Virus record (IMG/VR): IMGVR_UViG_3300044612_001159
Coordinates: 32,001-96,000 of that record
Reading direction: 5' to 3' (one strand)
From: a virus
DNA: 64,000 nucleotides
The notes beneath the pieces are model-generated. The model saw nothing but the letters and a program-made list of their open reading frames with translations, made no database searches and was not told where the DNA came from. Of the stretch, positions 271-29,667 are shown piece by piece (position 1 is the stretch's first letter; each line of letters opens with the position of its first letter). The position numbers were made by a program, and so were the translations under genes.

Positions 271-297
271 AGACCTGAGCAAGTCTATAAACTGCTC
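271..297 (+). ncRNA. pseudoknot motif copy 1
   Basis: AGAC CUGAGCAA GUCU AUAAAC UGCUC; S1 AGAC/GUCU, S2 GAGCA/UGCUC. Confidence 0.75.
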
Positions 298-311
298 CTG
301 CCCACGGGCGG

Positions 312-327
312 TGTGATCTTTATCACA
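312..327. promoter_or_regulatory. CRP/GlxR-type site
   Basis: perfect TGTGA-N6-TCACA upstream of a TTGACA-17-TAAGAT promoter (337-365). Confidence 0.6.
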
Positions 328-371
328 TTTGAGATTTTGACATTTTTTTGTGTTTATGATAAGATTATTTT

Positions 372-521
372 ATGAAGAAAACACCAGAGGAATTACGCAG
401 GCTTATGGAATTACGCCGTAGCAATGCTGCCTCTGCCGTACCCTCAAAAAAGAAATACAATAGAAAGAAAAGTCAGTCCTCGCTGATACAATTGAGGAAA
501 GAAAGGGCCCCCCATGACTAA
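372..521 (+). CDS. small basic protein (49 aa), leaderless
   Basis: read by eye: MKKTPEELRRLMELRRSNAASAVPSKKKYNRK...; ATG 6 nt after the -10. Confidence 0.55.
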   Translation: MKKTPEELRRLMELRRSNAASAVPSKKKYNRKKSQSSLIQLRKERAPHD

Positions 522-1236
522 ACTAAAACGCTCTAATGATAGGAAAGTGGCTAATGCTGTATCAAAAAACGGAAAGACCCCAACAATTGCCAACACTTTT
601 GGATTGCCTAGTGGTAAGGCTTACTCATGTCCTGGTGAAACCTCTGTATGCAGCAAAGTATGCTACGCAGGAAAACTCGAAAAGATCTACAAAGGTGTAA
701 GAGATAATCTATTACACAATTGGAATTTACTAAAAGACGCTAACTATGAAGAGATGTATGACTTACTTTCTGCAATGATAAAAGAGTTTATTGTTGATTG
801 TGAAAAGAAAGACGCTCCTAAACTATTCCGCATTCACTGGGACGGAGATTTCTTCAATGATGAATACGCAAGGGCCTGGAAGCATGTCATTCTAAATAAT
901 CCTGATGTTCAATTCTGGGTATACACTAGAGTGAAATCTGCTGCCCTAATTCTCAAGGGTATGGATAATTTGTCTCTATACTACTCTGCAGATAGCGAAA
1001 ATGTCAAAACTGCTGTAGACCTAAAACTAAATCATGGTGTACGCATGGCATACCTTGCACAAAACTTTGCAACTGGTAAAGCAGATGTAAAAGAAATGAT
1101 TGGAAGACCTGCTGCTAAGTGTCCTGAAAATGCAAAACAAATTCCACTAATCTCAACTAAGGGCTCGGCTTGCGTTTCTTGCTCACTTTGTGTATACTCT
1201 AAGAGCGACATAATTTTCTCTGCGAGTAAGAAATGA
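514..1236 (+). CDS. GP88-like protein (radical-SAM-related, Cys-rich)
   Basis: CPG..C..VCYA and RIHWDGDF, W.YTR motifs; C-terminal CxxCxxC. Confidence 0.75.
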   Translation: MTKLKRSNDRKVANAVSKNGKTPTIANTFGLPSGKAYSCPGETSVCSKVCYAGKLEKIYKGVRDNLLHNWNLLKDANYEEMYDLLSAMIKEFIVDCEKKDAPKLFRIHWDGDFFNDEYARAWKHVILNNPDVQFWVYTRVKSAALILKGMDNLSLYYSADSENVKTAVDLKLNHGVRMAYLAQNFATGKADVKEMIGRPAAKCPENAKQIPLISTKGSACVSCSLCVYSKSDIIFSASKK

Positions 1237-1241
1237 GATAA

Positions 1242-1304
1242 ATGGATACCAAACAAGTTATTTTATTATTGATGTTTTTATTTATTTTCTTTTTATATCA
1301 GTGA
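1242..1304 (+). CDS. putative 20-aa membrane microprotein
   Basis: MDTKQVILLLMFLFIFFLYQ, directly after the GP88-like stop. Confidence 0.35.
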   Translation: MDTKQVILLLMFLFIFFLYQ

Positions 1305-1464
1305 AAGGGCGGCACGTCCGCAAAATCTTTGGTTTGTCAAGTCATTATAATGTGATTATAAACACTTTATAAATCCCCCCGCAGATCCCCGCTGAATTGT
1401 ATTTTTGACATTTTTCTGCTAGACTTATACTATAAGAAATAACCCCACAACGAAAGGAAACACA

Positions 1465-1635
1465 ATGACCCTCGGAGGATACACTTATCAGATTGGTGAC
1501 CTATTCACCACCAGCAAGACAGGCGTTACAGGTCGTATCGCAAGTTTCGCACCAATGTCTAACAGTGTTACTAGAGTTAGTCTTGTCTTGGCAAATGGCT
1601 CTCGCCGTTTGGCTATGGTAAAGACCAGCAAGTAA
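1465..1635 (+). CDS. small beta-rich protein (56 aa), paralog of 1735-1899
   Basis: own promoter (TTGTAT-17-TAGACT), GAAAGG RBS; MTLGGYTYQIGDLFTTSKTGVTGRI... Confidence 0.8.
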   Translation: MTLGGYTYQIGDLFTTSKTGVTGRIASFAPMSNSVTRVSLVLANGSRRLAMVKTSK

Positions 1636-1734
1636 TCTCAAAATGTGAGAAATGTCAGACCTAGATTTGACATTTTTCTACAATAATGTCATAATTATAC
1701 AATAAGCAATAACCCCTAACAGAAAGGCAACACA

Positions 1735-1899
1735 ATGTCAGTAGCAACAGCAACATACAAGGTAGGCGACACCTACACCACACAGAAGTCAAAGGTCACA
1801 GGAGTAATCACAGAGATTACACCACAAGCCAATGGTAATGTTCGTGTGAAACTTGATGTCAATGGTAAGTCACGCTATACCACTTGGACAGCAAAGTAA
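1735..1899 (+). CDS. small beta-rich protein (54 aa), paralog of 1465-1635
   Basis: TTGACA promoter, GAAAGG RBS; MSVATATYKVGDTYTTQKSKVTGVI... Confidence 0.8.
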   Translation: MSVATATYKVGDTYTTQKSKVTGVITEITPQANGNVRVKLDVNGKSRYTTWTAK

Positions 1900-1915
1900 T
1901 TCCTAATACAGGAAA

Positions 1916-1944
1916 AGTCCTGAGCACGACTACTAAAACTGCTC
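1916..1944 (+). ncRNA. pseudoknot motif copy 2
   Basis: AGUC CUGAGCAC GACU ACUAAAAC UGCUC. Confidence 0.75.
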
Positions 1945-2004
1945 AACAAGATTGTCAGCGCAAAGTGCTAGACTAAATACCCCACAAACGAAAGGACAGA
2001 CCCA

Positions 2005-2430
2005 ATGGCAAGAGGACAAAAAGCCATTAGTGTAAAGATTGCTACAACCAAAGTAATCAAGGCACTAGAAACTAAGTTAGACCAAATCAAGAAAGATAAG
2101 GCTAACCAAAAAACTAACGAGGAGAAGTATCAGAAGGCTTACGAAAAGTGGCTAAAAGATGTTGCTAAACTTTCTCTCGCTCAAATCTCAAAGGCAGAAA
2201 ACCTACGAGCAAGTGTTCGCTATAATGGCAACATAAATGTAGATTTTGATTTGCCTAAGTCTGCGGTAGCAGATTTCCCTGCTGAACCTGAAAAGGATTT
2301 TGAGACTTTTCACGATTGGCAATACAAGGAAATGGTAGAAGAAATTGAGAACGCAATTCGTATTCTCAAGATGACAGATGAGGAAGTAGTTTCCACATCT
2401 ACTTACAACGCTATCGCAAGATACTTGTAA
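2005..2430 (+). CDS. hypothetical coiled-coil protein
   Basis: GAAAGGA RBS, own promoter. Confidence 0.8.
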   Translation: MARGQKAISVKIATTKVIKALETKLDQIKKDKANQKTNEEKYQKAYEKWLKDVAKLSLAQISKAENLRASVRYNGNINVDFDLPKSAVADFPAEPEKDFETFHDWQYKEMVEEIENAIRILKMTDEEVVSTSTYNAIARYL

Positions 2431-2436
2431 TAAAAC

Positions 2437-2463
2437 TTTCCTGAGCAAGAAATAAAACTGCTC
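2437..2463 (+). ncRNA. pseudoknot motif copy 3
   Basis: UUUC CUGAGCAA GAAA UAAAAC UGCUC. Confidence 0.75.
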
Positions 2464-2542
2464 ACCAATAAAACTAAATAAAATTGGGTGACAGCCTGCG
2501 TTCAAGGCAGATCTATCTGCGAAAGTCCCCTGGCACTCCCTA

Positions 2543-2584
2543 ACACCTGAGTATGGAGGAAATCCTTTAGTGTCTAAACTGCTC
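2543..2584 (+). ncRNA. pseudoknot motif copy 4, with a hairpin inserted in loop 2
   Basis: ACAC CUGAGUA [UGGAGG AAAU CCUUUA] GUGU CUAAAC UGCUC. Confidence 0.7.
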
Positions 2585-2607
2585 CACCTCAAAATCCCCC
2601 CGTGCCG

Positions 2608-2645
2608 TTATCCACAGGTTATCCACAGGTGTGAATTTGATCACA
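2608..2645. promoter_or_regulatory. two tandem DnaA boxes plus a CRP-type site
   Basis: TTATCCACA at 2608 and 2619; TGTGA-ATTTGA-TCACA at 2630-2645. Confidence 0.7.
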
Positions 2646-2748
2646 TTTACGATATGTCCGATTTATCCCTTATCTAACTATCCAGATTTGCATTTGTCAG
2701 ACTAGACTGCTATACTTGAAATTCAACAAACAATAAGGAGAAAAACTC

Positions 2749-3765
2749 ATGGCACATGACCTAGAAACACAAAACGGCAAGACATCTTTCGCATCTTTCC
2801 GTGAACCCGCATGGCATGGATTGGGTACTGTCTTTACAGAAGAAAAAACAACTGCAGAAATGCTAGAGGCTGCAAACCTCAATGGTTGGAATGTTCGTCT
2901 TGAAGATATGTCTATTCCATCTCATCTAACAAGCGACAAGCAATACCAATATGTTGTTCGCACTAACCCTACCGATAACACACAAACCGACATTCTTGGT
3001 GTCGTTGGTGAGCGTTATCATGTTCTGCAGAATGAAGACCTATTTTCATTCGGTGATAATATTCTTGACGGCGGAGGTCGTTGGGAAACTGCTGGTGCAA
3101 TCAAGGGTGGTCGTGTTGTATTCGGCTCACTTGCACTAGAGCGTGAAACCGTATTAGACCCTAGCGGTGTTGCAGATAAGGTAAAGACTTATCTTCTCAT
3201 CAATACCTCACATGACGGCTCAATCGCTATTCAAGCATCAATCACACCTGTTCGTGTTGTATGCGCTAATACTCTCAATCTTGCACTAGGTGGCAAGAAA
3301 AAGAAGAATGGCATCAAGCAATCATTCAAGATTCGCCACACACAAACTGCCAATGGTAAAGTGCAGATTGCTCGTGAAACTCTTGGTCTTGCTAATGCAT
3401 ACATGGACGAATTCGACATCATGGCTAAGGCTATGTTCGAGAAGGAAGTCAATGCTCAACAATTCAATGACATCATTCTTGCTGCGTATCCAAAGCCTGA
3501 TAAAGATGCTAAGGGTTCAATCAAGAAGTGGGAAAACAAGGTTGATGTTATCAATGACATCTATACTGGCGAATTCAATGGTATGATTGCTGGTAATGCT
3601 TGGGGTGCTTTCAATGCACTAACCGAACGCCTTGATTGGTATCGTACCGCAAGAGGTGGTTCTAACGAATCAATTCTTGCATCTGCGAGTGGATTTGACC
3701 CTGCTATCAATGCAGAAAAAAATCGTTTGCTAAAAGTTGTGCAAAATGTAATGCAGATTGCATAA
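2749..3765 (+). CDS. DUF932 family phage/plasmid protein (TIGR03299-like)
   Basis: AWHGLG, ETAG...GGRVVF, SHDGS, RVVCANTL, IRHT motifs. Confidence 0.85.
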   Translation: MAHDLETQNGKTSFASFREPAWHGLGTVFTEEKTTAEMLEAANLNGWNVRLEDMSIPSHLTSDKQYQYVVRTNPTDNTQTDILGVVGERYHVLQNEDLFSFGDNILDGGGRWETAGAIKGGRVVFGSLALERETVLDPSGVADKVKTYLLINTSHDGSIAIQASITPVRVVCANTLNLALGGKKKKNGIKQSFKIRHTQTANGKVQIARETLGLANAYMDEFDIMAKAMFEKEVNAQQFNDIILAAYPKPDKDAKGSIKKWENKVDVINDIYTGEFNGMIAGNAWGAFNALTERLDWYRTARGGSNESILASASGFDPAINAEKNRLLKVVQNVMQIA

Positions 3766-3773
3766 ATAAAAAA

Positions 3774-3800
3774 ATTCCTGAGCAAGAATAAAAACTGCTC
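3774..3800 (+). ncRNA. pseudoknot motif copy 5
   Basis: AUUC CUGAGCAA GAAU AAAAAC UGCUC; 7 nt before tRNA-Asp. Confidence 0.75.
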
Positions 3801-3807
3801 ACCAATT

Positions 3808-3883
3808 GGTTCCGTAGATTAGTCTGGTTTAAATCGCTACACTGTCACTGTAGAGATCGTGGGTTCAAATCCCATCGGAATCG
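3808..3883 (+). tRNA. tRNA-Asp(GTC)
   Basis: cloverleaf; anticodon arm CTACA-CTGTCAC-TGTAG; T-loop TTCAAAT. Confidence 0.9.
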
Positions 3884-4040
3884 CAAAGAAAATCGGGACG
3901 TGGGGATTCGGACATTTCGGACATAAAAATATCAATCTTAAATTAAATTACGAAGAACGAAATAAATCCCCAAAAATATCAAAACCAAAAACAATTACGA
4001 TAGAGTTGACATTTCCCTGATTTTCTGCCATAATTTATAC

Positions 4041-4202
4041 ATGACCCAAACATACAAACCATACACCATAGATGAACTGGTGACAGAAATCTATGAGGAC
4101 AACCTGTCACACTTTGAATTTGAGGAAAACATGGGTGGAGAGCCCTGTGACTGCTATCTACATAACACTATGAATACTATCATGAAATACTGGGGGGAAT
4201 AA
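4041..4202 (+). CDS. hypothetical protein (53 aa), leaderless
   Basis: TTGACA...CATAAT then ATG; stop overlaps the next start. Confidence 0.65.
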   Translation: MTQTYKPYTIDELVTEIYEDNLSHFEFEENMGGEPCDCYLHNTMNTIMKYWGE

Positions 4203-4402
4203 TGAACCAACTAATTGAATATATAAAGATACATATCATTAGCCTAGAGCAAGACCTAGAGCAAATCTCTAATGAAATGGAAGCACTTGACCCTGCCTCT
4301 AAGGATTATACTGAGTTAGATTTTGAATATAATCATATGAGTGGACAACTTCTTTCTGCCCGCCATATTTTGTCAGTGGCCGACGGTATACTAGAGGTAT
4401 GA
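4202..4402 (+). CDS. hypothetical protein
   Basis: ORF track, coupled to neighbours. Confidence 0.7.
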   Translation: MNQLIEYIKIHIISLEQDLEQISNEMEALDPASKDYTELDFEYNHMSGQLLSARHILSVADGILEV

Positions 4403-4686
4403 TGAACACTACACAACTAGAACCAAGACTGCAGAAACTAATAGACCTAGGGGAATCAGGCACTGACATCCTCCATGGTGAACTCAAAAACCTTATGTAT
4501 GAGGCTGAAAAGGAATTGATTGAGGCCCAACGCATTGAGGAAGACAATGACTACAGCGACGCCATGGAATCTATGGAGCGAAAGTACTGGGAGGGACAGT
4601 TAGACGCTATGTCTCATGTATATGGTTTGACCTATGCCCTGGCCTTTGCAATCTCAGAGCGAAGGAGCAAGCAATCTAATGAGTGA
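4399..4686 (+). CDS. hypothetical protein
   Basis: ORF track, ATGA overlap. Confidence 0.7.
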   Translation: MMNTTQLEPRLQKLIDLGESGTDILHGELKNLMYEAEKELIEAQRIEEDNDYSDAMESMERKYWEGQLDAMSHVYGLTYALAFAISERRSKQSNE

Positions 4687-4840
4687 TGTAATAATCTTAA
4701 CAGATAGAGATGAGATTGAGGACCTGATAGGGGATCAGATCTCTGACGAGCAATGGCTAACTATCAAAGAAAAGATTGCTAGAAATAAACATATCTGGCA
4801 AGTTATTGATGAGGCCCTCAACGATATCATCTCTGAATGA
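4679..4840 (+). CDS. hypothetical protein
   Basis: internal ATG of ORF 4634..4840 with GGAG RBS. Confidence 0.6.
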   Translation: MSDVIILTDRDEIEDLIGDQISDEQWLTIKEKIARNKHIWQVIDEALNDIISE

Positions 4841-4910
4841 CATTAAGAAGGCTTGATTTATTTTCCCGATTCTGCTAGAATTGGATTACGACCACTAGAA
4901 AGGACCCCAC

Positions 4911-5645
4911 ATGCCAAACTGGGTATATAACTCGTTAGCAATAGAAGCAATAGAGGCTGACCCTAGTCAGATTACTAAACTAGTTTCTCAAGTCAATCAA
5001 CCATTTCAACGACAGCATGACCAATGGAACTCTGATACACATCAAATGGAATTGTTAGATGTTGAGTATTCCAATCCTGTCTTTGCATTCTGGAACATTG
5101 TCAAACCTACAGACCTAGAGACTTATGCTTTGCAGAAAGACCCAAACCATGATGATTCTATTATAGATTTTCAAGGTAACAACTGGTATGACTGGAATGT
5201 GCGTAACTGGGGAACTAAATGGGATGTTGCTGTTCATGATAAGGAACAGTATCCTGAAACTACTATGGAGCATGGTGATAAGTCAGTTATTTATAGTTTC
5301 AATACTGCTTGGTCCCCTCCGATTCCTGCGGTGCTTGCCCTATCAGAGCAGTATCCTGATTTAGTCTTTCATCTGTTCTACCAAGAAGAAACAGGGTGGG
5401 GTGGAGACATGCAGATTATGGGTGGTGCCACAATCAGAGAGCAACACTATGAATCACAGTGTAGAGATTGTGATGCAACTGACTGCATGGAGTATTGCGA
5501 TAACGACTGCGGTGAGATTTGTAATGAGTGTAACTATCTAGGTGAGGCTGACCTTGATGCAGTATCAGAATGTGAGATTCACAAGGCATACCTAGACGAG
5601 GAACATGTGCCCGAATACCGCAGACTTGACAAAGCCAACGCATAA
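4911..5645 (+). CDS. DUF1281/YubB ferredoxin-like domain protein with Cys-rich C-terminus
   Basis: MPNW..N, WYDW...NWGTKWD, F.TAWSPP motifs. Confidence 0.75.
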   Translation: MPNWVYNSLAIEAIEADPSQITKLVSQVNQPFQRQHDQWNSDTHQMELLDVEYSNPVFAFWNIVKPTDLETYALQKDPNHDDSIIDFQGNNWYDWNVRNWGTKWDVAVHDKEQYPETTMEHGDKSVIYSFNTAWSPPIPAVLALSEQYPDLVFHLFYQEETGWGGDMQIMGGATIREQHYESQCRDCDATDCMEYCDNDCGEICNECNYLGEADLDAVSECEIHKAYLDEEHVPEYRRLDKANA

Positions 5646-5679
5646 TGAGATAATTGAACAAACGACCCAAGGAGATAAT

Positions 5680-6006
5680 ATGGCAAAAATAGATATGGAT
5701 AAACTAGAACTAATCGGCAGTTTCGGTGTCGACAGTGGACAAGCAATGGTAGGTGACCCCTGCTATCTTGATGAGTGGAAAACTAATCGTGATGAGGAGT
5801 GGGACTTGGCAGGCAAGATAGGCCAATACTCCTATCAAGGTGCTAGTGCCACCACTATTGATAGTTCTGCTGGAGTATTAGGCAACGGTAGGTCAGTAGT
5901 ATTCAACACAGGCTACGGCGACGGCGTCTACCCTGTTTATGCTGAATTCAATGATGACGGCAGAGTTGCTCGTATTGTTATTGAATTTGTTAGTGATGAG
6001 GAGTAA
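5680..6006 (+). CDS. DUF4241-like protein
   Basis: GVDSGQ...DPCY and GYGDG.YPVY motifs; GGAG RBS. Confidence 0.65.
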   Translation: MAKIDMDKLELIGSFGVDSGQAMVGDPCYLDEWKTNRDEEWDLAGKIGQYSYQGASATTIDSSAGVLGNGRSVVFNTGYGDGVYPVYAEFNDDGRVARIVIEFVSDEE

Positions 6007-6009
6007 TTA

Positions 6010-6102
6010 ATGGAAATCATTCTAGTAGTACTATTTGTAATCTGGTGCCTAGGTGCACTATCAGGTGGCCTAACTGGATACACAGGAGAGGTAAAGAAAT
6101 AA
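6010..6102 (+). CDS. 30-aa membrane microprotein
   Basis: MEIILVVLFVIWCLGALSGG...; GAGGAG RBS. Confidence 0.5.
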   Translation: MEIILVVLFVIWCLGALSGGLTGYTGEVKK

Positions 6103-12364: not shown

Positions 12365-12533
12365 AAACATGATATAATCTAGATATGGAAAAATCAAGGT
12401 GTCATTTTTGCGATAAAGAAGCACAATACTACGATGTTGTGCTAAAAAACGCCGAATACATTGTGGGCGATGTTTGCGTAGATCACCTTTCCGTAGAATT
12501 TGTATCCTAGAAACTGGATGGTATAATAAAAAA

Positions 12534-13304
12534 ATGACATATAGTGCTGAAGACTACAAAGAAAGAAATGTAACTAAACTGGTAGAGATTTGGGAGCCAA
12601 GAAAAGAATACATTGAAAAAGACCTGTGGGTAATAAGAAACTTTCTTTCAGATGAAGAATTGGTTTGGTTAAATAAAGAAGCAAATAATCCAGTTGGGTG
12701 GTACACCACAATGAGATCACCTTATGGGGGTAATACTAAAAACAAATTTTTAGGTTATATACCAGATTACGATCCCGTCAGTGGGGCTATGCTTGTTCCT
12801 AAAGACAACTCTAGGTGGGGATACAAAGATCCCGTAGGATATTTTGAGCCTAGATTAGAGGCTGTAATGCCTAAGTATTTTGCTGGTGCTGGTGCACTTC
12901 AATCTTTTTTTGAAGTTCCTGAAGAGCAGATTATTGCAGAACTTGGCAGTACTGTTGACTATGCTATGGACTGGCACTGGGAAAGAGACGATAATGACGA
13001 TGAAGAGCAGCAAAGAACAATTGTAGTAAATTCAAAAACTCAAGGGAAAAGAATATTAAGTGAAGCAAAGATTTCTGCATCTTTGAGCATTTATATAAAT
13101 GATAACTTTGATGGTGGAGTTCTTGAGTTTAAGAATAAAGATTATGTAATCAATCCAGAGCCAGGCATGCTAGTTAATGTTCCTTTATATAAAGAGTTTG
13201 AGCATAGAGTTACAAAAGTTACTAATGGAAATCGACACACTATATATGGAAGATGTTGGGATAGTTTAGAAGGAATCTACAAGTCAACAGATGAAGACTG
13301 CTAA
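12534..13304 (+). CDS. 2OG-Fe(II) oxygenase (WYxTMRSPY / C-terminal Cys subfamily)
   Basis: HWE, YINDNFDGG.LEF, HRV..V..G.R; leaderless start. Confidence 0.85.
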   Translation: MTYSAEDYKERNVTKLVEIWEPRKEYIEKDLWVIRNFLSDEELVWLNKEANNPVGWYTTMRSPYGGNTKNKFLGYIPDYDPVSGAMLVPKDNSRWGYKDPVGYFEPRLEAVMPKYFAGAGALQSFFEVPEEQIIAELGSTVDYAMDWHWERDDNDDEEQQRTIVVNSKTQGKRILSEAKISASLSIYINDNFDGGVLEFKNKDYVINPEPGMLVNVPLYKEFEHRVTKVTNGNRHTIYGRCWDSLEGIYKSTDEDC

Positions 13305-19531: not shown

Positions 19532-20335
19532 ATGAAATCTATATATGATATCGAATTGGAGTCTGCTGAAGGAGAATCACACTTCTTGCAGCAATTTAAA
19601 GGCAAAGCAGTATTGCTTATCAACACAACAGTTGGTTGTGGAAACGCTGGTCAAATGGAGTCTATTCAGTGGATTCAAGAAGATCTTGCTGGAGATGACT
19701 TTACTGTTGTTGCAATTCCAACAAATGACTTCTGTGGTCCTAGCATTACAAAAGGAAAGTGGTCAAAAGGTATCACTTGTGGTTTAGACTCAAAGAATTA
19801 CGGAATAGATGTGTATGGTGTTACATTCCCATTCTCAGAAATGATTACATCTAATCCCGCAGATATTCCACTAGAAGCCCCTTGGCTTGGTAAAGGTCCA
19901 GGACTTAACGGAAATGGTCAACCATTTGGAGAAAGACATGAACTTTATCTAGAAGTTTCAAGACAAATTTTGGAAATAATGAATAAGAAAAAAGAACTTG
20001 GTATAGTTGAAAAAACAGATTATGAGTCAAGATATTTAAACGAACATAATGGCGGATTCATGATGAATGCTAACTTTGAAAAATATCTAATTGATAAAGA
20101 TGGATATGTGGTTAAGCATTATCCTGCTACAACATTGAACTGGGATGTTGAGCGCACACTCAAAGAAGATCTAATAGCAAAAGGACAAGATCCAAAAATG
20201 GGTCCAGATAGATCTGAATACATTTTCAATGAGGAAAATGCTGTTATCCGTGACCATATCGAAAGATTGATGGCTGGAGAAAAATCAATCATTAATCCAG
20301 CATATGTCGATGCAGACGAACTAGTTGCTGTTTAA
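19532..20335 (+). CDS. glutathione peroxidase-like protein, extended
   Basis: N...GCG, P.NDF, NFEKYLIDKDG. Confidence 0.8.
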   Translation: MKSIYDIELESAEGESHFLQQFKGKAVLLINTTVGCGNAGQMESIQWIQEDLAGDDFTVVAIPTNDFCGPSITKGKWSKGITCGLDSKNYGIDVYGVTFPFSEMITSNPADIPLEAPWLGKGPGLNGNGQPFGERHELYLEVSRQILEIMNKKKELGIVEKTDYESRYLNEHNGGFMMNANFEKYLIDKDGYVVKHYPATTLNWDVERTLKEDLIAKGQDPKMGPDRSEYIFNEENAVIRDHIERLMAGEKSIINPAYVDADELVAV

Positions 20336-20962: not shown

Positions 20963-21535
20963 ATGAAAACAATTGGATATAAATTAAATCCGTTTCGCAT
21001 TGTTGGTGTAAAGCCAGGAAGACTAGATGGTGCTGATGATGTTTTTGAAACATTAAACGAGAAATGGTTTCCAGGAAAATGGAAAGTTCTTGTGTATTAC
21101 CCTAAAGATTTTACCTTTGTGTGTCCCACAGAAATTGTTGCTTATGACAAACTTGTAAATGATTTTAATGATCGTGATGCAGTATTACTGACAGGATCAA
21201 CAGATAATGAATTCTGTAAGGTTGCGTGGCGCAATGCCCATGAAGATCTGAAGAAAACCAACTCGTGGTCTTTTGCTGACCAGGTTCGCAATTGGCAATA
21301 TAATGGAGATGATGAAGGGTACACTGGTTTAGCAGAACAACTTGGAGTTCTCAATGAAGACGGAGTTGCCCTTCGTGCAACCTTTATTATTGATCCAGAC
21401 AATATTATTCAGCATGTTACAGTCAACAATCTAAATGTTGGTCGTAGTCCTGAAGAAACATTGCGTATTCTTGATGCTCTTCAAACAGGAGAACTCTGTG
21501 CTTGCAATAGAAGTCTCGGTGGAGAAACCTTGTGA
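20963..21535 (+). CDS. ahpC: peroxiredoxin AhpC
   Basis: YPKDFTFVCPTE, GR...E.LR..DALQ..ELCAC. Confidence 0.95.
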   Translation: MKTIGYKLNPFRIVGVKPGRLDGADDVFETLNEKWFPGKWKVLVYYPKDFTFVCPTEIVAYDKLVNDFNDRDAVLLTGSTDNEFCKVAWRNAHEDLKKTNSWSFADQVRNWQYNGDDEGYTGLAEQLGVLNEDGVALRATFIIDPDNIIQHVTVNNLNVGRSPEETLRILDALQTGELCACNRSLGGETL

Positions 21536-23389: not shown

Positions 23390-23809
23390 TTACTTGATTT
23401 TGATTGTTTTTGGTTTCTTTTCTTCGGGGATGTTTCTCTCCACAAAGACGCTAAGAATACCGTCTGCCATTTCAGCACGATCTACCTCCATATACTCTCC
23501 AAGAGCAAAGGTGCGTGTGAACTTTCTGGTTGCGATACCCTTATGCAGGACATTACTTGCGTCCTCTTCGGCTTTCTCACCCTTTACAATAAGACTTCCA
23601 TTATCCACAGAAACCTCTACCTCATCTTTGCTGAAGCCAGCAATAGCCAGAGATAGTTTGTAAGTATCTTCATCAATCTTCACCACATCATATGGTGGAT
23701 ACGATTGACGAGTTGCCTCACGATGGATATTATAGAAGCGGTCCAACTCTCTGTTGAAACCAATAAAAAATGGATCCTTAAAAAGATCCAATGACCATGA
23801 ACTTACCAT
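23390..23809 (-). CDS. hsp20: small heat shock protein Hsp20 (IbpA-like)
   Basis: YPPYD, LAIAGF, HKGIATRKF.R.F.L, DGIL. Confidence 0.93.
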   Translation of the reverse strand: MVSSWSLDLFKDPFFIGFNRELDRFYNIHREATRQSYPPYDVVKIDEDTYKLSLAIAGFSKDEVEVSVDNGSLIVKGEKAEEDASNVLHKGIATRKFTRTFALGEYMEVDRAEMADGILSVFVERNIPEEKKPKTIKIK

Positions 23810-23864
23810 TATTTCCTCCTTGTTAAGCGAGTTCAATTTGTACCCCCCTTTGGGCAGGCACAAC
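23810..23864 (-). promoter_or_regulatory. ROSE-like RNA thermometer in the hsp20 5'UTR
   Basis: CUCGCUU-AAC-AAGGAG: UCGCU with bulged G pairs with the SD; upstream hairpin. Confidence 0.6.
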
Positions 23865-23879
23865 TAAATTATAGCATAA

Positions 23880-23910
23880 TAAAACAGGGATGTCAAGTAC
23901 CCATCCCTGT
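23880..23910 (-). terminator. intrinsic terminator overlapping the hsp20 -35
   Basis: ACAGGGATG/CATCCCTGT plus T-run. Confidence 0.6.
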
Positions 23911-23927
23911 CCTATAAACAAATACTA

Positions 23928-24227
23928 TTAAAGCATTTGCTGTGGCTTTCCGCCACCGCCAGACTTCTTCTTTGCTGGAGCCTTCTTTGCAGGCTTCTTT
24001 ACAACCTTTGCAGACTTAACTGCAGCGTCTACATCTTCTACAGATGGTAGGCGACCAAACGCTGTGTCGTTTGGATTTGCTGCTCTCAATACTACTGGCA
24101 CAATTGCACCAAGCAATGAGTATGCTAGTGTCTGTGGATCAGTTACTCCAGAAGCATACATTGCTGTTGCTGCTCCAAGAACTGATCGACCATAAGACGC
24201 TAGTGCTGCCTTAATTTGTTCATTCAT
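23928..24227 (-). CDS. membrane protein, holin-like
   Basis: 2 hydrophobic segments, NP.D.AFG, Lys-rich tail. Confidence 0.55.
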   Translation of the reverse strand: MNEQIKAALASYGRSVLGAATAMYASGVTDPQTLAYSLLGAIVPVVLRAANPNDTAFGRLPSVEDVDAAVKSAKVVKKPAKKAPAKKKSGGGGKPQQML

Positions 24228-24237
24228 TTTTTTCCTC

Positions 24238-24423
24238 CTAGGATATGAACTTCGATATGGCTACCCAAACTGGTTGAGCAAGCCATAATCCAATTATACC
24301 AGCAACGCCAGCGAATACTGGAGGGGCTGGAATTGGAATCTTAACTGGGGATATTGCGCTTATTGATAGGATTATTAAGCCTAAAGTAAGGCCTACTGAT
24401 AGTGATAACAAGATTTCTTTCAT
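24238..24423 (-). CDS. XapX/DUF1427-like membrane protein
   Basis: PIPAPPVFAGVAGIIG. Confidence 0.7.
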   Translation of the reverse strand: MKEILLSLSVGLTLGLIILSISAISPVKIPIPAPPVFAGVAGIIGLWLAQPVWVAISKFIS

Positions 24424-24581
24424 TTATTCCCTCACATTTTGTAGTTGTGTATAATGGTTTAAACAAACATCTAGCACCCTTGTTTCTGTGCCAAACAGTT
24501 TTTCTCCGTCTTCTTTACAATTAAGAACATTACAGTGTCCAACTGGATCCAAAAATATTTGATCATAGGTTTTAAATTCTA

Positions 24582-25457
24582 TCATTTTTGTGACTCGACA
24601 TACTGATTAATAAAAGATATAATAATTTCTGATTCAGATCTTGGAACAGCATTAATTAAAAGATGATGTATATTGTCTTCTTCAAGAGTCTGGACAAATT
24701 CATGAAAACTATCATATGTGAAATATTCCACATCGCTTACTACCGCTGGTATCTCTCCCTTTTTCCAGACTGGCCTCATTGCATGTTTTGCCAGTGGCTC
24801 TAACTCTTCTTTTGTTTTTCTAATAATTGGTGTCATTGCCAGCATAACTTCTGTATTTTTAATATCAAGATTAATCATCATTGATGGATCTTTTAAAACA
24901 TCTGACCAAAATCCACGTTTATAAATATGGTAAGGCAAAATTATTTTATTTTTGTATTTTTTAACAGTATCAAAAACATAACTGTTTGTAGTTGATATAT
25001 AAACATCTAAAGTGTTCTCTAATTGCTTTCCTTCTGCAGTTTGAGTAGCCATTATGCCATTATTTATTTCATCAAGTTTTTTAATAAATTCAATTGTGTA
25101 TTTTGATCTTTCTAAAGATTCTGATAAATCATTTACCTCCCCCAAAATACCACCAATATTTTTTTCATGATCTTTGATATATCCAGGAACAACATTTATT
25201 TGAAGCCTATTTGGAGCAATCTCATTTATTGATTGAGTTATTGTATATAGATATTGTGGAGATATCGTGTATGGCCTAATTGCAACAAGATATTTAATCT
25301 TACCGTCTGTTTTGATTTCTCTTGCAACTCTTGTAAACATGTCTCCTTCTGTAGGATCATATGTATACATTACCCCAGAAAAATTATTTTTTTCAAGAAT
25401 AGGTGCTGTCTCCATGCTGTTTTCATGAAACACACCGCCAAAATAATAAAAATTCAT
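24582..25457 (-). CDS. luciferase-like (LLM/SsuD-like) monooxygenase
   Basis: KYLVAIRP..ISP, RLQINVVPG. Confidence 0.65.
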   Translation of the reverse strand: MNFYYFGGVFHENSMETAPILEKNNFSGVMYTYDPTEGDMFTRVAREIKTDGKIKYLVAIRPYTISPQYLYTITQSINEIAPNRLQINVVPGYIKDHEKNIGGILGEVNDLSESLERSKYTIEFIKKLDEINNGIMATQTAEGKQLENTLDVYISTTNSYVFDTVKKYKNKIILPYHIYKRGFWSDVLKDPSMMINLDIKNTEVMLAMTPIIRKTKEELEPLAKHAMRPVWKKGEIPAVVSDVEYFTYDSFHEFVQTLEEDNIHHLLINAVPRSESEIIISFINQYVESQK

Positions 25458-25867
25458 TATAACATTTTACCATAATCTTCGGGAAGTAATTTTTTTAATT
25501 GTTTAAATTCTGAAGATATTTTCTTCAGAGCAAAATCATGGGGAGAAACCATCCCCTCAATAGCAGCCCCATACTTGTCATAATAGTCAATCTGTGGCTC
25601 AATCTCATCGATAAACTTTTGTAGTCCAGCCTGAACAGACTCTATATACTCATATGCTAAATCACGAGAATCTGAAACAAATTTTAAAAAATCTTCATTT
25701 GCTTTTTCTTTATCTGTTTTGTTTTCTTTGTGCTGAATTTCTTGCTCTAACAAAGTCTTTAAAGTATTTGCAAGAATAGAAATGTTAATTCTTTTTTGCA
25801 CAATATATAAATAAATAAATAATAATGAAGTGATAGACAAAGCAACTATAGCAAACATTTCTATCAT
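25457..25867 (-). CDS. hypothetical protein with N-terminal TM
   Basis: ORF track. Confidence 0.7.
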   Translation of the reverse strand: MIEMFAIVALSITSLLFIYLYIVQKRINISILANTLKTLLEQEIQHKENKTDKEKANEDFLKFVSDSRDLAYEYIESVQAGLQKFIDEIEPQIDYYDKYGAAIEGMVSPHDFALKKISSEFKQLKKLLPEDYGKML

Positions 25868-26145
25868 AATTCTTTTCCTCCCTCTCTAACTAACTGAACA
25901 ATTGCCCCATTCTGCTCAAGAGCCTTCTTTGTTTTAATCATATAGTTTGCAGCACGAATCTTGTCATCATGACTTAAAAGCATAAAAGATTTTTCAGACG
26001 CACGAACAGTTAAAAATCCTTCTTGATGCTCAACTATCTGTAATGAAAAACCTTTAGGCGCTAAATGATCTAGTGACCTAAACGCCCTTCTCATTGCATC
26101 TGTATATACTAGTCCATTGTTAGAGACTGCCATGTTACACCCCAA
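25864..26145 (-). CDS. hypothetical protein (start uncertain)
   Basis: ORF track. Confidence 0.6.
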   Translation of the reverse strand: MGCNMAVSNNGLVYTDAMRRAFRSLDHLAPKGFSLQIVEHQEGFLTVRASEKSFMLLSHDDKIRAANYMIKTKKALEQNGAIVQLVREGGKEL

Positions 26146-26390
26146 TCAGCCTTTGTTTTATGATTAGAGAACTCTTTTGATATTTCGCCGTTTTCTAAGT
26201 ATACCCCGCCCCAAACTCCCCACTCTTTGCCAGAAATGCCCACAGAAAAACACTCTTTTCTTACTGGACATTCAGAACATAACAGGTCTACAGCAGGCCT
26301 TAACAACTCATCTTCTTCGTATTTATCAAAAAAAACATTAGTATCATAATCTAGGCATGCAGCATTATCTTTCCATTCATACCTATTCAT
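26109..26390 (-). CDS. whiB: WhiB family Fe-S transcription factor
   Basis: W...AAC...C..CPV...C...GVWGG. Confidence 0.92.
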   Translation of the reverse strand: MNRYEWKDNAACLDYDTNVFFDKYEEDELLRPAVDLLCSECPVRKECFSVGISGKEWGVWGGVYLENGEISKEFSNHKTKADWGVTWQSLTMD

Positions 26391-26392
26391 AG

Positions 26393-26605
26393 TTATGCTA
26401 CATACTTGTCAGGTATTTCCCATCCGTTTCTAGAGACGACAAAAATCTTTTTTAGGTACCAAGCACCGTTTTTAAGTGCTCCGTACTTTGATGTCATTGC
26501 CTTATCTGACCTTGACATTTCAACAACATTCCAACCGTCCCAAGACAAGTTTTTGTTCTTGGAAACAATTGTCTCCATTTGTTCAAGAGAATCTATTGTT
26601 TTCAT
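26393..26605 (-). CDS. hypothetical protein
   Basis: ORF track. Confidence 0.7.
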   Translation of the reverse strand: MKTIDSLEQMETIVSKNKNLSWDGWNVVEMSRSDKAMTSKYGALKNGAWYLKKIFVVSRNGWEIPDKYVA

Positions 26606-26615
26606 TTTATACTCC

Positions 26616-26969
26616 TTAAAAGTTGTATACGTTTGTATTAATATTTTTTGACTTTGACAAACTAACTAGATTCGACACTCTTTCTTTTGGATTTGCAACA
26701 AAAGCAAAGTGATCAAAACTATCAATATTTTCTTCAAGCCATTGAGGAGTAACCCTAAATAGTTTGATAGACTTTCCTCTAGACTTCATACCTCTTTCAG
26801 AAAGATTTACAAACTCCATCGCCATATCATTAACATTTCCTGGACCAACAGAGTACAAGTAAAACTCTTTTTCATTATCTTTTAATTCAGACAAAGCAAC
26901 AGCCATTGCTCTAAGGAAAATATTATAGTTGTTGAAATTAGGCGTTCCCTGAACCCCTACTATCATCAC
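26616..26969 (-). CDS. SLOG/DUF2493-like protein
   Basis: IVGVQG..NFNNY N-terminus. Confidence 0.45.
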   Translation of the reverse strand: MMIVGVQGTPNFNNYNIFLRAMAVALSELKDNEKEFYLYSVGPGNVNDMAMEFVNLSERGMKSRGKSIKLFRVTPQWLEENIDSFDHFAFVANPKERVSNLVSLSKSKNINTNVYNF

Positions 26970-27354
26970 TTGTCCCTTCTGTTAGTTTGTCTACTATGAA
27001 CAACATCTTATCTAATTGTACCTTATCCATGTTGGTTGTGTCAACTTTTTCTGCAGAATCTTTGTCAATTTTTTCATTTACTAAAGGGGCTTTATAAAAT
27101 GTATTATTTTTAATCCAATACGCTACATCATCTACAACTATTACCTTGGTTGTAGATTCATCTTGATGCTTACTAGACTGGGTTTTTGGCTTAAGCCTTC
27201 TCTTATGCTTTTTAGACCCTGAATATCTGTGATGAAGTCTAGCCTGACTTACAATCTGCACACTTTTTTTATGCCTACGAGCCTTGAATAGATAAAAGAA
27301 AATAGAGAGCAGCATTACTGCCGTCAAAAGGATTGCTCCAAAAATATCGTTCAC
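26938..27354 (-). CDS. hypothetical protein with N-terminal TM
   Basis: ORF track. Confidence 0.7.
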   Translation of the reverse strand: MNDIFGAILLTAVMLLSIFFYLFKARRHKKSVQIVSQARLHHRYSGSKKHKRRLKPKTQSSKHQDESTTKVIVVDDVAYWIKNNTFYKAPLVNEKIDKDSAEKVDTTNMDKVQLDKMLFIVDKLTEGTSDDSRGSGNA

Positions 27355-27377
27355 TGATGCCCCCTAAACTTATTTTA

Positions 27378-27710
27378 TCACTTTTTGTTAAAAAGAAGTT
27401 TGATCAACTGTTTTAGGGCTGACCTTTCATTTGCATCCAATTTTTTTACCTGCTCTGGATCAAGAGATTTTTTATTAAGACTAACAATGGGGTTGGCATC
27501 TGTCACATCCATATCAATAAAACCTTTTTCCCACAACCTCATTGACATTTCTGAAAAATATTTTCCCAATGCTACATCAAGTTTTGGATCTATGTCTTTC
27601 AACATTTCTGTTTTAACATACATGTTTTCCCCTGTTTCTGGATCCTTGCCAGCAAACCTTAGACCACCAGTTAAAACTAACTTATTGAATATTTCATTCG
27701 ATTCGTTCAT
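27378..27710 (-). CDS. hypothetical protein
   Basis: ORF track. Confidence 0.7.
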   Translation of the reverse strand: MNESNEIFNKLVLTGGLRFAGKDPETGENMYVKTEMLKDIDPKLDVALGKYFSEMSMRLWEKGFIDMDVTDANPIVSLNKKSLDPEQVKKLDANERSALKQLIKLLFNKK

Positions 27711-28114
27711 TTTCCAGATTTCTTTCTAGCCTTTGCCAAAGCATCAAAATCTTTTACCTTAGTATCTCCAAGGTAGCCCCATGCATAACCATTATTAATC
27801 ATGTGATCGTTTACAGAAACGGTGTCTTCGTCTACATAAAGCCAGCCAAGAATTCGACCATACTTTTCAGAAGAGTCCATCTTCTCTGTCTTAATTACTA
27901 CAGACTTTGCATCCTTCAAAAACTTCTTTAGGTACTCTTTGGACTCTAGGCCCAAAGCCTTTTCCTTAAGGTCTTTTGTACGAGATTCTGGGGTATCAAT
28001 GCCAGCCAGCCTTACACGAGATGCAAACAAAATATCAAACCCTAAATCAATTAGAACGTCAATGGTATCCCCATCTACTACGTTCTCTACTTTTCTTACA
28101 TAGTATGTATACAT
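27707..28114 (-). CDS. thermonuclease (SNase-like)
   Basis: VVDGDT, RLAGIDTPE, KYGRIL. Confidence 0.9.
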   Translation of the reverse strand: MYTYYVRKVENVVDGDTIDVLIDLGFDILFASRVRLAGIDTPESRTKDLKEKALGLESKEYLKKFLKDAKSVVIKTEKMDSSEKYGRILGWLYVDEDTVSVNDHMINNGYAWGYLGDTKVKDFDALAKARKKSGK

Positions 28115-28365
28115 TAGTAATCTTGCCCCTTTGCTTTATTTTCAATCAGTTTATTTCTTTCATCAAGAATGGTAATTGCAAACTTCATCATTTTGTCGTA
28201 ACCAACAGCATTGTCCATAACCTTGTTATAGTGATGACCACAAAACAACAAGTCTCCGTTTAAGCCAGTTACTCTCACTAGGGCCTCAGCACCACATCTA
28301 TCACACCTGTCAATTGGGGATAGTTGCCACTCTGCCTTAGCCTCATCTTTAACCATTGTAAACAT
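28114..28365 (-). CDS. small Zn-binding actinobacterial-type protein
   Basis: DRCDRCGAEA...LLFCGHH. Confidence 0.65.
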   Translation of the reverse strand: MFTMVKDEAKAEWQLSPIDRCDRCGAEALVRVTGLNGDLLFCGHHYNKVMDNAVGYDKMMKFAITILDERNKLIENKAKGQDY

Positions 28366-28366
28366 A

Positions 28367-28552
28367 TTATACCTTCCGATTGTCAGTAGAATAAAATCCA
28401 CTACCGTTGAATACTGCTCCTACATTAGAGTATACACGAATTAGATCTGAATTGCAAGCATCACATTTATACCCTGGATCGTTTTCGGACATAGACCTAA
28501 TCTTTGTATATCTTATTGCACAAGACATACAGTCATATTCATATGATGGCAT
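28367..28552 (-). CDS. FmdB family zinc-ribbon protein
   Basis: MP.YEY.C..C...C..C...F.GSGFYSTD. Confidence 0.85.
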   Translation of the reverse strand: MPSYEYDCMSCAIRYTKIRSMSENDPGYKCDACNSDLIRVYSNVGAVFNGSGFYSTDNRKV

Positions 28553-28661
28553 TATTTCTTTTTCGTTTTAGCCTTTACTTGCCAAACAGGAAGTTTAAGT
28601 TCGTCGCCAGACCATTCATAACCTAATGCTTTTACTACGAACTTGATAATTTTAATACGCA

Positions 28662-28880
28662 TTATTTAACCTTTCTGCCAAACTTGGCCCATACTCTTTC
28701 ATGCAAATAAAAGAATGTCATTTCTAGTGCTAGATATGATAGCCCATAAAGACCAACATATTCCCACTCTGCTTCTCCAGTATAATATTTAAGTACAAAA
28801 TAAATTATTCCAGAAACAAAAGTAAAATGTACAAACGGCCAACTAATAGTCTTCAACAAAGACTTCTTTTTTGATTCCAT
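28662..28880 (-). CDS. DUF2061 membrane protein (second copy)
   Basis: KS..KTISW...YLHERVW. Confidence 0.75.
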   Translation of the reverse strand: MESKKKSLLKTISWPFVHFTFVSGIIYFVLKYYTGEAEWEYVGLYGLSYLALEMTFFYLHERVWAKFGRKVK

Positions 28881-29521
28881 TATAGCGCTACCTGTGCCTT
28901 TCCTCCACCGCCACCAGCAACCTTCTTCTTCTTTTTCTTTGCAGCAGGCTCTGCAGATGTTGCAGTATCAGATGAACCAACCTTACTCAATAGCGGAAGG
29001 CTTTCTTCTCCAGCGTATACTGGTCTTCCCCATCCAACAACAGCATTAACCAACTTCTTCTTGTTGTTCTTAACATATGCACGAGTTTTCTCTACACACA
29101 TTCCACCATTGCGCTGGTCTCCCTTTGCAGTTCCAGAGGTATTGCCTTCGATGACTTGAATAGTTCCATCACCATTATTCTTAATACAAAGACCAACATG
29201 CGAAATACGATTTACGCCATCTTCTGGGAAATCAAAATAAATCCAATCACCTGGAGTTGGATCGTCGTTTCTGGCATCTGCCCAACGATCATTCTTCTTA
29301 AACCAATCAGACGCTGCAACAGTTGCTGCGGTCTTTGGATATTTCTTTGGATCTAGCCCTGCAGTAAATGCACACCAAGAAACAAATGATTGACACCATG
29401 GCAAAAAGTTTGCACCTGTCCACTTACCATACTTTGTCTCATTATCTTTTGGACCCTCAATAGTTCCGAGTTCCTTTTTTGCAACCTCAATGATTGCTTC
29501 TAAACTACCTTTAACTGCCAT
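28880..29521 (-). CDS. CHAP-domain endolysin
   Basis: PWCQSFVSW, P.PGD, SHVG, IEGNT. Confidence 0.85.
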   Translation of the reverse strand: MAVKGSLEAIIEVAKKELGTIEGPKDNETKYGKWTGANFLPWCQSFVSWCAFTAGLDPKKYPKTAATVAASDWFKKNDRWADARNDDPTPGDWIYFDFPEDGVNRISHVGLCIKNNGDGTIQVIEGNTSGTAKGDQRNGGMCVEKTRAYVKNNKKKLVNAVVGWGRPVYAGEESLPLLSKVGSSDTATSAEPAAKKKKKKVAGGGGGKAQVAL

Positions 29522-29562
29522 AATATTCCTCCTTGTTGATATGACAATATAATTATATCACG

Positions 29563-29635
29563 CTGCCCCACCTGGTCTCGATCCAGGGACATCCGAATTA
29601 ACAGTTCGGCACTCTACCATCTGAGTTATAGGGCA
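29563..29635 (-). tRNA. tRNA-Asn(GTT)
   Basis: CCGAA-CTGTTAA-TTCGG; atypical T-loop ATCGAGA. Confidence 0.85.
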
Positions 29636-29639
29636 ATGT

Positions 29640-29667
29640 GGGCAGTTTTTAGTCATACCCAGGACTA
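29640..29667 (-). ncRNA. pseudoknot motif copy 7 (compensatory S2)
   Basis: UAGUC CUGGGUAU GACUA AAAAC UGCCC. Confidence 0.75.

Follow-up and report, generated by a model that had tools for sequence, protein, structure and literature searches.

Coremin, or exoribonuclease-resistant RNA C (xrRNA-C), and its Watson-Crick variant xrRNA-WCC are known from plant, fungal and picorna-like RNA viruses (Dilweg et al.; PMC6546385, PMC10321173, PMC10520033). Coremin is found mostly in 3' untranslated regions or between genes and acts as a mechanical roadblock without any protein, halting a 5'-to-3' enzyme and protecting the RNA which lies downstream. A second group of very small viral knots, the beet western yellows virus (BWYV) type of luteoviruses and poleroviruses, measures 28 nt and is placed 5-9 nt behind an A-site codon (PMC10321173). 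Here, an RNA element of prokaryotic viruses is described which resembles both. It lies in a stretch of 64,000 nt, hereafter the window, corresponding to bases 32001-96000 of the 115,665-bp IMG/VR virus record IMGVR_UViG_3300044612_001159, the genome of a tailed phage from lake water. The element is present in exactly seven copies, 27-42 bases in length, both in the window and in the whole 115.7-kb genome, and these repeats are an H-type RNA pseudoknot family under selection for RNA structure. As a structured RNA family it is real and strongly supported, and it is uncatalogued as far as the literature and Rfam could be searched.

Read from 5' to 3', the knot is composed of the 5' strand of stem 1, loop 1 (CU), the 5' strand of stem 2 (GAGCA), one bulged base, the 3' strand of stem 1, loop 3 and the 3' strand of stem 2 (UGCUC). 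Stem 1 comprises 3-6 bp of free sequence and is closed by a C-G pair, present in 58 of 61 aligned copies; stem 2 comprises 5 bp, either GAGCA/UGCUC or compensated variants; loop 3 is 5-11 nt long, A/U-rich and ends in AAAC. The 1-nt bulge at the junction (loop 2) tolerates insertions, and its base varies freely (U, A or C). A comparison of the lengths of stem 1 and loop 3 gave no informative correlation. The initial annotation of this DNA, which was made from the seven copies, had described CU and AAAC as conserved and unpaired, and in the alignment of 61 copies both are invariant together with the A-U pair at the junction.

The knot shares with coremin and WCC a short 5' hairpin closed by C-G, and with coremin an A-rich spacer and an essential AAAC-U core, to the extent that GAC-GUUAAAC-UAC of coremin is matched by GAC-GUUAAAC-UGCUC in many phage copies. 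The loop-to-spacer GAG/CUC pairing of WCC is part of the phage stem 2, and the indispensable loop 1 base of coremin can be counted as shared, as can the prevalent location in 3' untranslated or intergenic regions and, if the phage knot blocks enzymes as proposed below, the protein-independent roadblock. However, the phage loop has 8 nt (CUGAGCAN) and departs from the YGAD or YGNNAD consensus of coremin (PMC6546385, PMC10520033), and loop 1 is a 2-nt CU, unlike in coremin. The phage stem 2 is 5 bp long and starts after AAAC, whereas the coremin pairing includes that C. The coremin spacer, (G)UUAAACUAC, has 10 nt of which A15-A17, C18 and U19 are essential; in the phage knot AAAC-U is invariant and is followed by the stem-2-paired GCUC, not by AC. 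Moreover, coremin and WCC have an obligatory second hairpin of at least 4 bp, which is not enriched behind the phage knot: among 216 non-redundant copies from fetched loci, the sample used for the stop-codon and U-tract statistics below as well, a hairpin starts 0-3 nt past stem 2 in 22, against 29.8 in shuffles and 39 at +40 nt. Finally, the phage hosts are prokaryotes without Xrn1, and the phage context points to the 3' end of an upstream RNA, in contrast with the protection of downstream RNA by coremin. Judged by sequence, the knot is no member of the coremin/WCC class, from which it departs in three defining features: the consensus of the loop, the register in which stem 2 pairs and the obligatory second hairpin.

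Support for the fold comes from four mutually independent tests. An exact scan of IMG/VR which used only the letters of stem 2 returned at least 119 loci, and in about 70% of the loci picked in this way, among the matches listed, stem 1 pairs 4/4 with dozens of different sequences. Conversely, when candidates were selected within these loci by stem 1, CU and AAAC only and those with the consensus stem 2 were set aside, 47 copies with stem 2 paired 5/5 were retrieved, in 15 different stem 2 sequences which include AAGCA/UGCUU, GGCCA/UGGCC, GGACA/UGUCC, GACCA/UGGUC and GAGUA/UACUC, while the reversed-sequence control gave 0 copies. In the gap-free alignment of 61 distinct copies, changes on both sides are registered in eight of nine pairs, and the covariation score is 0.63 compared to 0.05-0.10 with slid partners; because this alignment was selected for pairing, its figure of 100% paired carries no weight and only the variety of pairs counts. 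In IMG/VR, the double change GGGCA/UGCCC is found at 119 loci or more, versus 19 for the single change GAGCA/UGCCC, which leaves an A-C mismatch. The proposal that selection acts on RNA structure, originally drawn from the seven copies, is thus borne out by the covariation of both stems.

The alignment also holds 26 G-U cells, which would be A-C mismatches on the complementary strand, and this assigns the fold to the RNA of the sense strand. A site acting in the DNA itself (hairpin promoter, origin or protein operator) would agree with the fact that stem 1 is an inverted repeat in DNA as well and that copies are located in intergenic DNA near promoters. Such a site is nevertheless hardly credible, given that the orientation of the copies strictly tracks transcription, that the G-U pairs mismatch on the other strand, and that the covariation of a pseudoknot is meaningless in duplex DNA.

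The seven copies were recovered exactly, at 18.9-47.8 bits and with the next match at 13.4 bits, by a covariance model built from 61 family members and run with filters off; two of them were outside the training set. A relaxed descriptor scan of the whole genome found nothing further above the reversed-sequence control. The string AAACTGCYC occurs 7 times in the window against 1.14 expected, and the observed number was attained in 0 of 100 shuffles. All copies are on the strand of the flanking genes, at the positions first reported, which does not correspond to the strand-independent distribution of a DNA site.

Copy 1 (271-297, +; AGAC-CU-GAGCA-A-GUCU-AUAAAC-UGCUC; 41.6 bits) starts 5 nt past the TAA (263-265) of the open reading frame (ORF) 2-265, and is followed by a terminator-like hairpin at 298-311 and by a sigma-70-like promoter at 337-365. 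Copy 2 (1916-1944, +; AGUC-CU-GAGCA-C-GACU-ACUAAAAC-UGCUC; 34.4 bits, outside the training set) starts 16 nt past the TAA (1897-1899) of a 54-aa ORF (1735-1899) and lies 60 nt upstream of ORF 2005-2430. This latter ORF ends in two in-frame TAA codons, and copy 3 (2437-2463, +; UUUC-CU-GAGCA-A-GAAA-UAAAAC-UGCUC; 44.8 bits) starts 6 nt past the first of them. Copy 4 (2543-2584, +; ACAC-CU-GAGUA, a 16-nt hairpin, then GUGU-CUAAAC-UGCUC; 18.9 bits) lies 79 nt past copy 3 and is preceded by no ORF of 60 aa or more. Folding confirmed the insertion in loop 2 that had been noticed initially, as the 16-nt hairpin replaces the bulged junction base; the stem 2 of this copy, GAGUA/UGCUC, includes a G-U pair. 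The 79 nt between copies 3 and 4 fold no better than shuffles (z = -0.69), which argues against a structured small RNA at this point.

Copy 5 (3774-3800, +; AUUC-CU-GAGCA-A-GAAU-AAAAAC-UGCUC; 47.8 bits) starts 8 nt past the TAA of a DUF932 gene (2749-3765) and ends 7 nt before a tRNA-Asp (3808-3884, +). On the minus strand, copy 6 (23373-23347; ACAC-CU-GAGCA-U-GUGU-AUAAAC-UGCUC; 45.1 bits) starts 16 nt past the stop of an Hsp20 gene (23863-23390) and is followed by an extended -10-like box, TGCTATAAT, and then by ORF 23323-22661. Copy 7, also on the minus strand (29666-29640; AGUC-CU-GGGUA-U-GACU-AAAAAC-UGCCC; 43.4 bits), starts 5 nt past the TAA of ORF 30544-29672 and ends 4 nt before a tRNA-Asn (29635-29562, -). 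Thus the six copies which had been said to follow stop codons shortly do so at 5, 16, 6, 8, 16 and 5 nt (copies 1, 2, 3, 5, 6 and 7), and the tRNA distances of 4-7 nt are likewise exact. Stem 1 varies freely and stays paired as first listed (AGAC/GUCU, AGUC/GACU, UUUC/GAAA, ACAC/GUGU, AUUC/GAAU), and the compensatory change of stem 2, from GAGCA/UGCUC to GGGUA/UGCCC, is that of copy 7.

The size of the knot, a stem 1 of 4-5 bp, a loop 1 of 2 nt with C as its first base, the single bulged nucleotide at the junction and an A-rich loop 3 with AAA at its end, which in the luteovirus knot occupies the minor groove of stem 1, are all likenesses to the BWYV type (PMC10321173). The phage knot has the luteovirus-type layout (compact H-type, C in loop 1, 1-nt bulge, A-rich loop 3), with presumed base triples: the conserved CU and AAAC would fit major- and minor-groove triples of the BWYV type, which would give high mechanical stability within 27 nt. 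Triples of this kind have been discussed for coremin (PMC10321173). In contrast to the luteovirus knots, there is neither a slippery heptamer nor an overlapping -1 ORF, the copies follow stop codons and are followed by tRNAs or promoters, stem 2 has 5 bp instead of 3, and the knot is multi-copy per genome and found in DNA phages.

With preQ1-I (RF00522), the smallest natural aptamer, the knot shares the H-type fold, a length close to the 30-34 nt of that riboswitch and an A-rich 3' loop in the minor groove of stem 1. However, no Rfam match to it was obtained at E up to 10, the ligand-reading loop 2 base varies freely in the phage knot, and the copies lie behind genes and not in the 5' leaders of queuosine genes. 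At the gathering score, Rfam 15 found only tRNAs in the window, and in positions 200-3900 no family overlapped a copy at E up to 10, including preQ1-I, pistol, twister, hammerhead and HDV-like (hepatitis delta virus-like) ribozymes. Full-text literature searches by the motif letters, by phage pseudoknot or stop-codon motifs and by phage exoribonuclease-resistant RNA returned no description, in agreement with the first impression that the knot belongs to no named family.

Regarding function, the initial annotation had listed a 3' roadblock or processing signal, a small ribozyme, or a decoy for a defence protein comparable to the ToxI antitoxins. The first role best fits the context described in the following (spacing to stop codons, U-tracts, downstream tRNAs, drops of RNA depth), and the other two are unsupported, so that the original interpretation is partly supported as a whole. 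ToxI-type (type III) antitoxins are tandem repeats of about 36 nt beside a toxN-like gene, whereas the window copies are dispersed over 29 kb with none in tandem; a toxN-like gene is not among the annotated neighbours of these copies, although no search aimed at toxN was made.

Placement was determined on the 216 copies. A same-strand ORF stops within 60 nt upstream in 172 of them, compared to 78 on the antisense strand; 44 copies, copy 4 included, have no ORF of at least 40 aa ending within this distance. The spacing between stop and knot has a sharp lower edge, with only 4 copies at 0-4 nt and 25, 27, 7, 13 and 13 copies at 5, 6, 7, 8 and 9 nt respectively, after which a tail follows.

This spacing is one argument for a ribosome-directed barrier or insulator, in which a knot behind an A-site stop would stop read-through, sliding or re-initiating ribosomes, or tune termination, and would let downstream RNAs fold undisturbed. 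The lower limit of 5 nt and the mode of 5-6 nt match the spacer of -1 frameshift signals, and structured RNAs are often directly downstream of the knot. Furthermore, coremin and WCC knots stall scanning ribosomes and cause frameshifting of 22-30% in vitro, and an Escherichia coli screen selected WCC variants which were frameshift-positive (PMC10321173, PMC10520033). Nevertheless, the spacing has no constant frame, the window copies have neither a slippery heptamer nor an extended ORF in another frame behind them, copy 3 is preceded by two in-frame stops, 44 copies have no such ORF ending nearby, and the enrichment of U-tracts reported below is left unexplained; we regard such a barrier as having a slim chance. 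A read-through or frameshift signal in the strict sense was discarded on the lack of a constant frame, the tandem stops at copy 3 and the lack of a continuing ORF.

Downstream of the knot, a strong U-tract (at least 6 T in 8) begins 0-3 nt past the end in 36 of the 216 copies (17%), versus 2 (1%) at control positions. Dispersed, sense-oriented elements just past stop codons which end or protect messages are well known in the form of repetitive extragenic palindromic (REP) elements, 3' stem-loop stabilisers and intrinsic terminators, and the U-tracts are a further likeness to the last of these. The phage knot differs in being a pseudoknot with conserved loop letters and not a G+C-rich hairpin, and in being shared across phyla and not species-specific.

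Besides copies 5 and 7, 13 further copies precede a same-strand tRNA, 12 at a distance of 4-8 nt and one at 33 nt, and none follows a tRNA. A comparable layout is that of MALAT1 and MEN-beta, where a triple helix stands just upstream of the tRNA-like mascRNA, the cut of RNase P makes the 3' end and the triplex protects it. The folds are unrelated (H-type as opposed to an element for nuclear expression, ENE, with an A-rich tract), MALAT1 is eukaryotic and nuclear, and most phage copies have no tRNA behind them. In six Firmicutes-type phage or metagenome-assembled genome (MAG) loci, the knot ends 1 nt before an Rfam DUF2800 RNA (RF02960, 121-157 bits; loci L211:883-1071, L157:5403-5592, L245:3438-3621, L174, L215 and L236). 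An ORF of 64-65 aa ends 5-7 nt before the knot in these loci, resulting in a very compact order of ORF, knot and structured RNA. A different arrangement is seen in five Saccharibacteria MAG loci (L127, L150, L159, L181 and L225), where a conserved AUUAAAACGGGAGGGCGUAGAUAUG follows the knot and therefore places it about 10 nt before a ribosome-binding site and start codon; this leader-like position differs from that of most copies.

The abutting structured RNAs also speak in favour of a prokaryotic xrRNA, where the knot would block 5'-to-3' exonucleases such as RNase J and protect the downstream tRNA, DUF2800 RNA or next message. RNase J is present in Actinomycetota, Firmicutes and Archaea. The resemblance of the knot in sequence and architecture to coremin and xrRNA-WCC, with their C-G-closed hairpin, AAAC-U core and loop-to-spacer GAG/CUC pairing, supports this reading as well (PMC6546385, PMC10321173). 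On the other hand, the second hairpin, which coremin and WCC need for resistance to Xrn1, is not enriched (22/216 versus 29.8 in shuffles), and the knot keeps close to the upstream stop, with only loose spacing towards downstream ORFs. Genuine copies exist in Vibrio phages, and BLAST matches, not individually inspected, in Erwinia phages, both of which have hosts that to our knowledge lack RNase J. RNA depth is in addition greater before the knot than behind it, the reverse of what xrRNA products would show, and this function appears unlikely.

The evidence on depth derives from four metatranscriptome runs which cover the region as assembled contigs, from which true RNA ends and strand are not derivable; uncovered parts were not counted as evidence, and because the runs are kept as contigs the RNA evidence is weak. 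Summed contig depth is high across the genes at 1465-2430 and drops 28-58-fold after copy 3 in the two deepest runs, X15 and X16 (2583 to 91; 1375 to 24). A drop of about 7-fold follows copy 5 (285 to 43) and one of 4-10-fold follows copy 1 (e.g. 45 to 12), while no drop is seen after copy 2, which is directly followed by the next gene; drops were thus registered after three of four covered copies. Moreover, RNA contigs from two runs end at 2588 and 2594, 4 and 10 nt past copy 4. The resulting excess of RNA on the upstream side of the knot, weak as the evidence is, is the pattern of a 3'-end element.

RNA contigs run intact through copies 2, 3 and 5, which weighs against a small self-cleaving ribozyme that would cut polycistronic phage transcripts between genes. 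In phages, hammerhead, twister and theta ribozymes have a similar distribution (intergenic, on the sense strand, multi-copy and beside tRNAs), and the nucleotides of the knot are highly conserved for its size. Nevertheless, we know of no natural self-cleaving class as small as 27 nt, no ribozyme family is matched in Rfam and no conserved flanking cleavage dinucleotide was seen, which makes a ribozyme very improbable.

Our preferred reading, to which we assign a tentative probability of about 0.48 on the basis of genomic context and the weak RNA data, is that the knot is a gene-end module which marks, forms and shields the 3' end of the upstream phage RNA. The knot would be transcribed within phage messages and would stand at the shortest distance from the stop codon (5 nt or more) that spares a terminating ribosome from unwinding it, a spacing which would leave little naked RNA between the translated ORF and the knot. 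The transcript would then end a few bases downstream by one of three routes: U-tract termination, with the knot substituting for the terminator hairpin; an RNase P cut at the adjoining tRNA; or another processing event. An RNase P cut at the 5' end of tRNA-Asp, for instance, would give the upstream RNA a 3' end made of copy 5 and a further 7 nt. From there, 3'-to-5' exonucleases would stall at the triplex-stabilised knot. Whereas the structure, polarity, placement and distribution of the knot are shown by the data, both the blocking of exonucleases and termination by the knot are inferred.

Several observations weigh against a gene-end module of this kind. A plain stable hairpin would block most 3' exonucleases, which leaves the near-invariant CU, AAAC and stem 2 across bacterial and archaeal phages unexplained, and the enzyme blocked by the coremin xrRNAs, the nearest relatives of the knot described so far, works 5'-to-3'. 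None of the seven window copies is followed by a U-tract of its own, and the junction of the knot to downstream structured RNAs (tRNA, DUF2800 RNA) fits a function on the 5' side equally. The contig depth is flat per contig, and carry-over of DNA is possible.

The conserved letters would be accounted for if the knot were a specific binding site or decoy for a host RNase, RNase P, ribosomal protein S1, RNA polymerase, a phage regulator, a defence sensor or a ligand, since even very distant phages strongly conserve the unpaired and junction nucleotides. In addition, a U precedes the G-C pair which opens stem 2 and an A follows stem 2 in 70% of copies; set beside the known preferences of RNase P, these ends loosely mimic a pre-tRNA acceptor end, so that the knot could be a substrate of this enzyme. 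However, no protein gene recurs beside the knot, the upstream and downstream genes being diverse (in the window GP88, DUF932, Hsp20, endolysin and similar genes), and the junction base of loop 2 varies freely, which sets it apart from the specificity base of small riboswitches. An equally good account of the conserved loop letters is that they form the stabilising base triples of compact knots of the BWYV type, and hosts which range from Actinomycetota to a methanogen speak against a decoy aimed at one particular defence protein. We consider a dedicated binding partner improbable.

A bolder and rather doubtful extension of the gene-end module is that the knot would be a protein-independent mechanical plug at the boundaries of RNA units in any host, which stops RNA polymerase at a U-tract and halts exonucleases, as a prokaryotic counterpart of coremin, convergent or related. 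If this were true, the knot would represent a new class of RNA 3'-end element, the smallest known. More generally, should the knot end or shield messages, it would account for the way in which phages adjust the stability of individual cistrons within long transcripts, improve phage annotation with respect to gene ends, the ends of small RNAs and tRNA leaders, and offer synthetic biology a portable and very small stabilising or terminating RNA part.

The pseudoknot is not special to the lake phage: it is a very widespread family, carried by hundreds of IMG/VR contigs, and this spread, like coremin and xrRNA-WCC as the nearest described relatives, had been missed by the initial annotation. In genomes and MAGs, at least 119 loci were found, again 5-9 nt behind diverse small phage-like genes, with carriers among Saccharibacteria, Anaerolineae, Bacteroidota, Firmicutes, Actinomycetota, Proteobacteria, Patescibacteria and two Methanobrevibacter MAGs. 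The phages which carry this 27-nt fold of textbook-quality covariation have hosts among Actinomycetota, Firmicutes, Bacteroidota, Proteobacteria, Cyanobacteria and Saccharibacteria and include those of a methanogen; as it was not found in Rfam or in the searched literature, a very common feature in the gene organisation of phages has so far gone undescribed. Its likeness to the coremin xrRNAs raises the question of whether viruses of all domains use the same mechanical solution.

Four cultured phages were inspected with the covariance model or in sequence. Staphylococcus aureus Phietavirus phage B166 carries the knot 9 nt past a head-morphogenesis gene (L246:1503-1532; record 21042-21071), S. 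aureus phage phiNM4-gamma4 carries it as well, Mycobacterium phage Labelle has it 6 nt past gene 85, and in Vibrio phage D456 loop 1 is CC; Labelle, B166 and D456 have a single copy each. The B166 knot is a staphylococcal variant, UAGCA/UGCUU, with U-U at the outer pair of stem 2 and a U-rich run directly downstream, and a promoter predicted by the annotators of that record overlies it. A link to the staphylococcal cabRNA was considered and set aside, as cabRNA is reported to derive from the terminase genes (PMC10686824) and the B166 knot follows a head-morphogenesis gene. Matches reported by BLAST, not individually inspected, extend to Nostoc, Synechococcus, Arthrobacter, Lactobacillus, Erwinia, crAss-like and other phages. 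Because cultured carriers exist, such as the S. aureus Phietavirus phages, Mycobacterium phage Labelle and Arthrobacter phage Molivia, function is directly testable.

As for the source genome, the INPHARED collection contained no close relative of the lake phage. The window encodes a terminase, a DnaB-type helicase, a large DNA polymerase, an endolysin, Hsp20, a GP88-family gene and the DUF932 gene, together with six tRNAs. A giant ORF at 56951-64000 (-), of more than 2300 aa, runs past the window edge with a glycine-zipper as its sole match, and adjoins a 1483-aa minor tail protein at 51842-56293 (-). This ORF had brought up an N4-like DNA hairpin promoter as an explanation of the repeats, which was rejected on the lack of a phage RNA polymerase domain, the minor tail protein as neighbour and the fact that the motif tracks RNA polarity; the giant ORF is probably a tape-measure or tail protein and not an N4-type virion RNA polymerase. 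Genes of auxiliary type include Hsp20 (23390-23863, -), a glutathione-peroxidase-like gene (19532-20335, +) and a weak match to 2-oxoglutarate (2OG)-Fe(II) oxygenases (12474-13304, +).

Strong sigma-70-like promoters are repeated in the window (TTGACATTTTT...N...TAnnnT), at 337-365, 1405-1433, 1667-1695 and 4006-4034. Near-identical leaders (AACCCCnnACAGAAAGGnAACACAATG) precede three small early genes starting at 1465, 1735 and 2005, the first two with a sigma-70-like promoter immediately upstream of the leader. These two, 1465-1635 and 1735-1899, are tandem paralogous mini-genes of 56 and 54 aa, each with its own promoter and leader, which share the motif xYxxGDxxTTxKxxVTG and have relatives in other carriers of the pseudoknot (L232). 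Between copy 4 and the promoter of the DUF932 gene, two perfect DnaA-box-like nonamers form a direct pair (TTATCCACAGG TTATCCACAGG) at 2608-2629.

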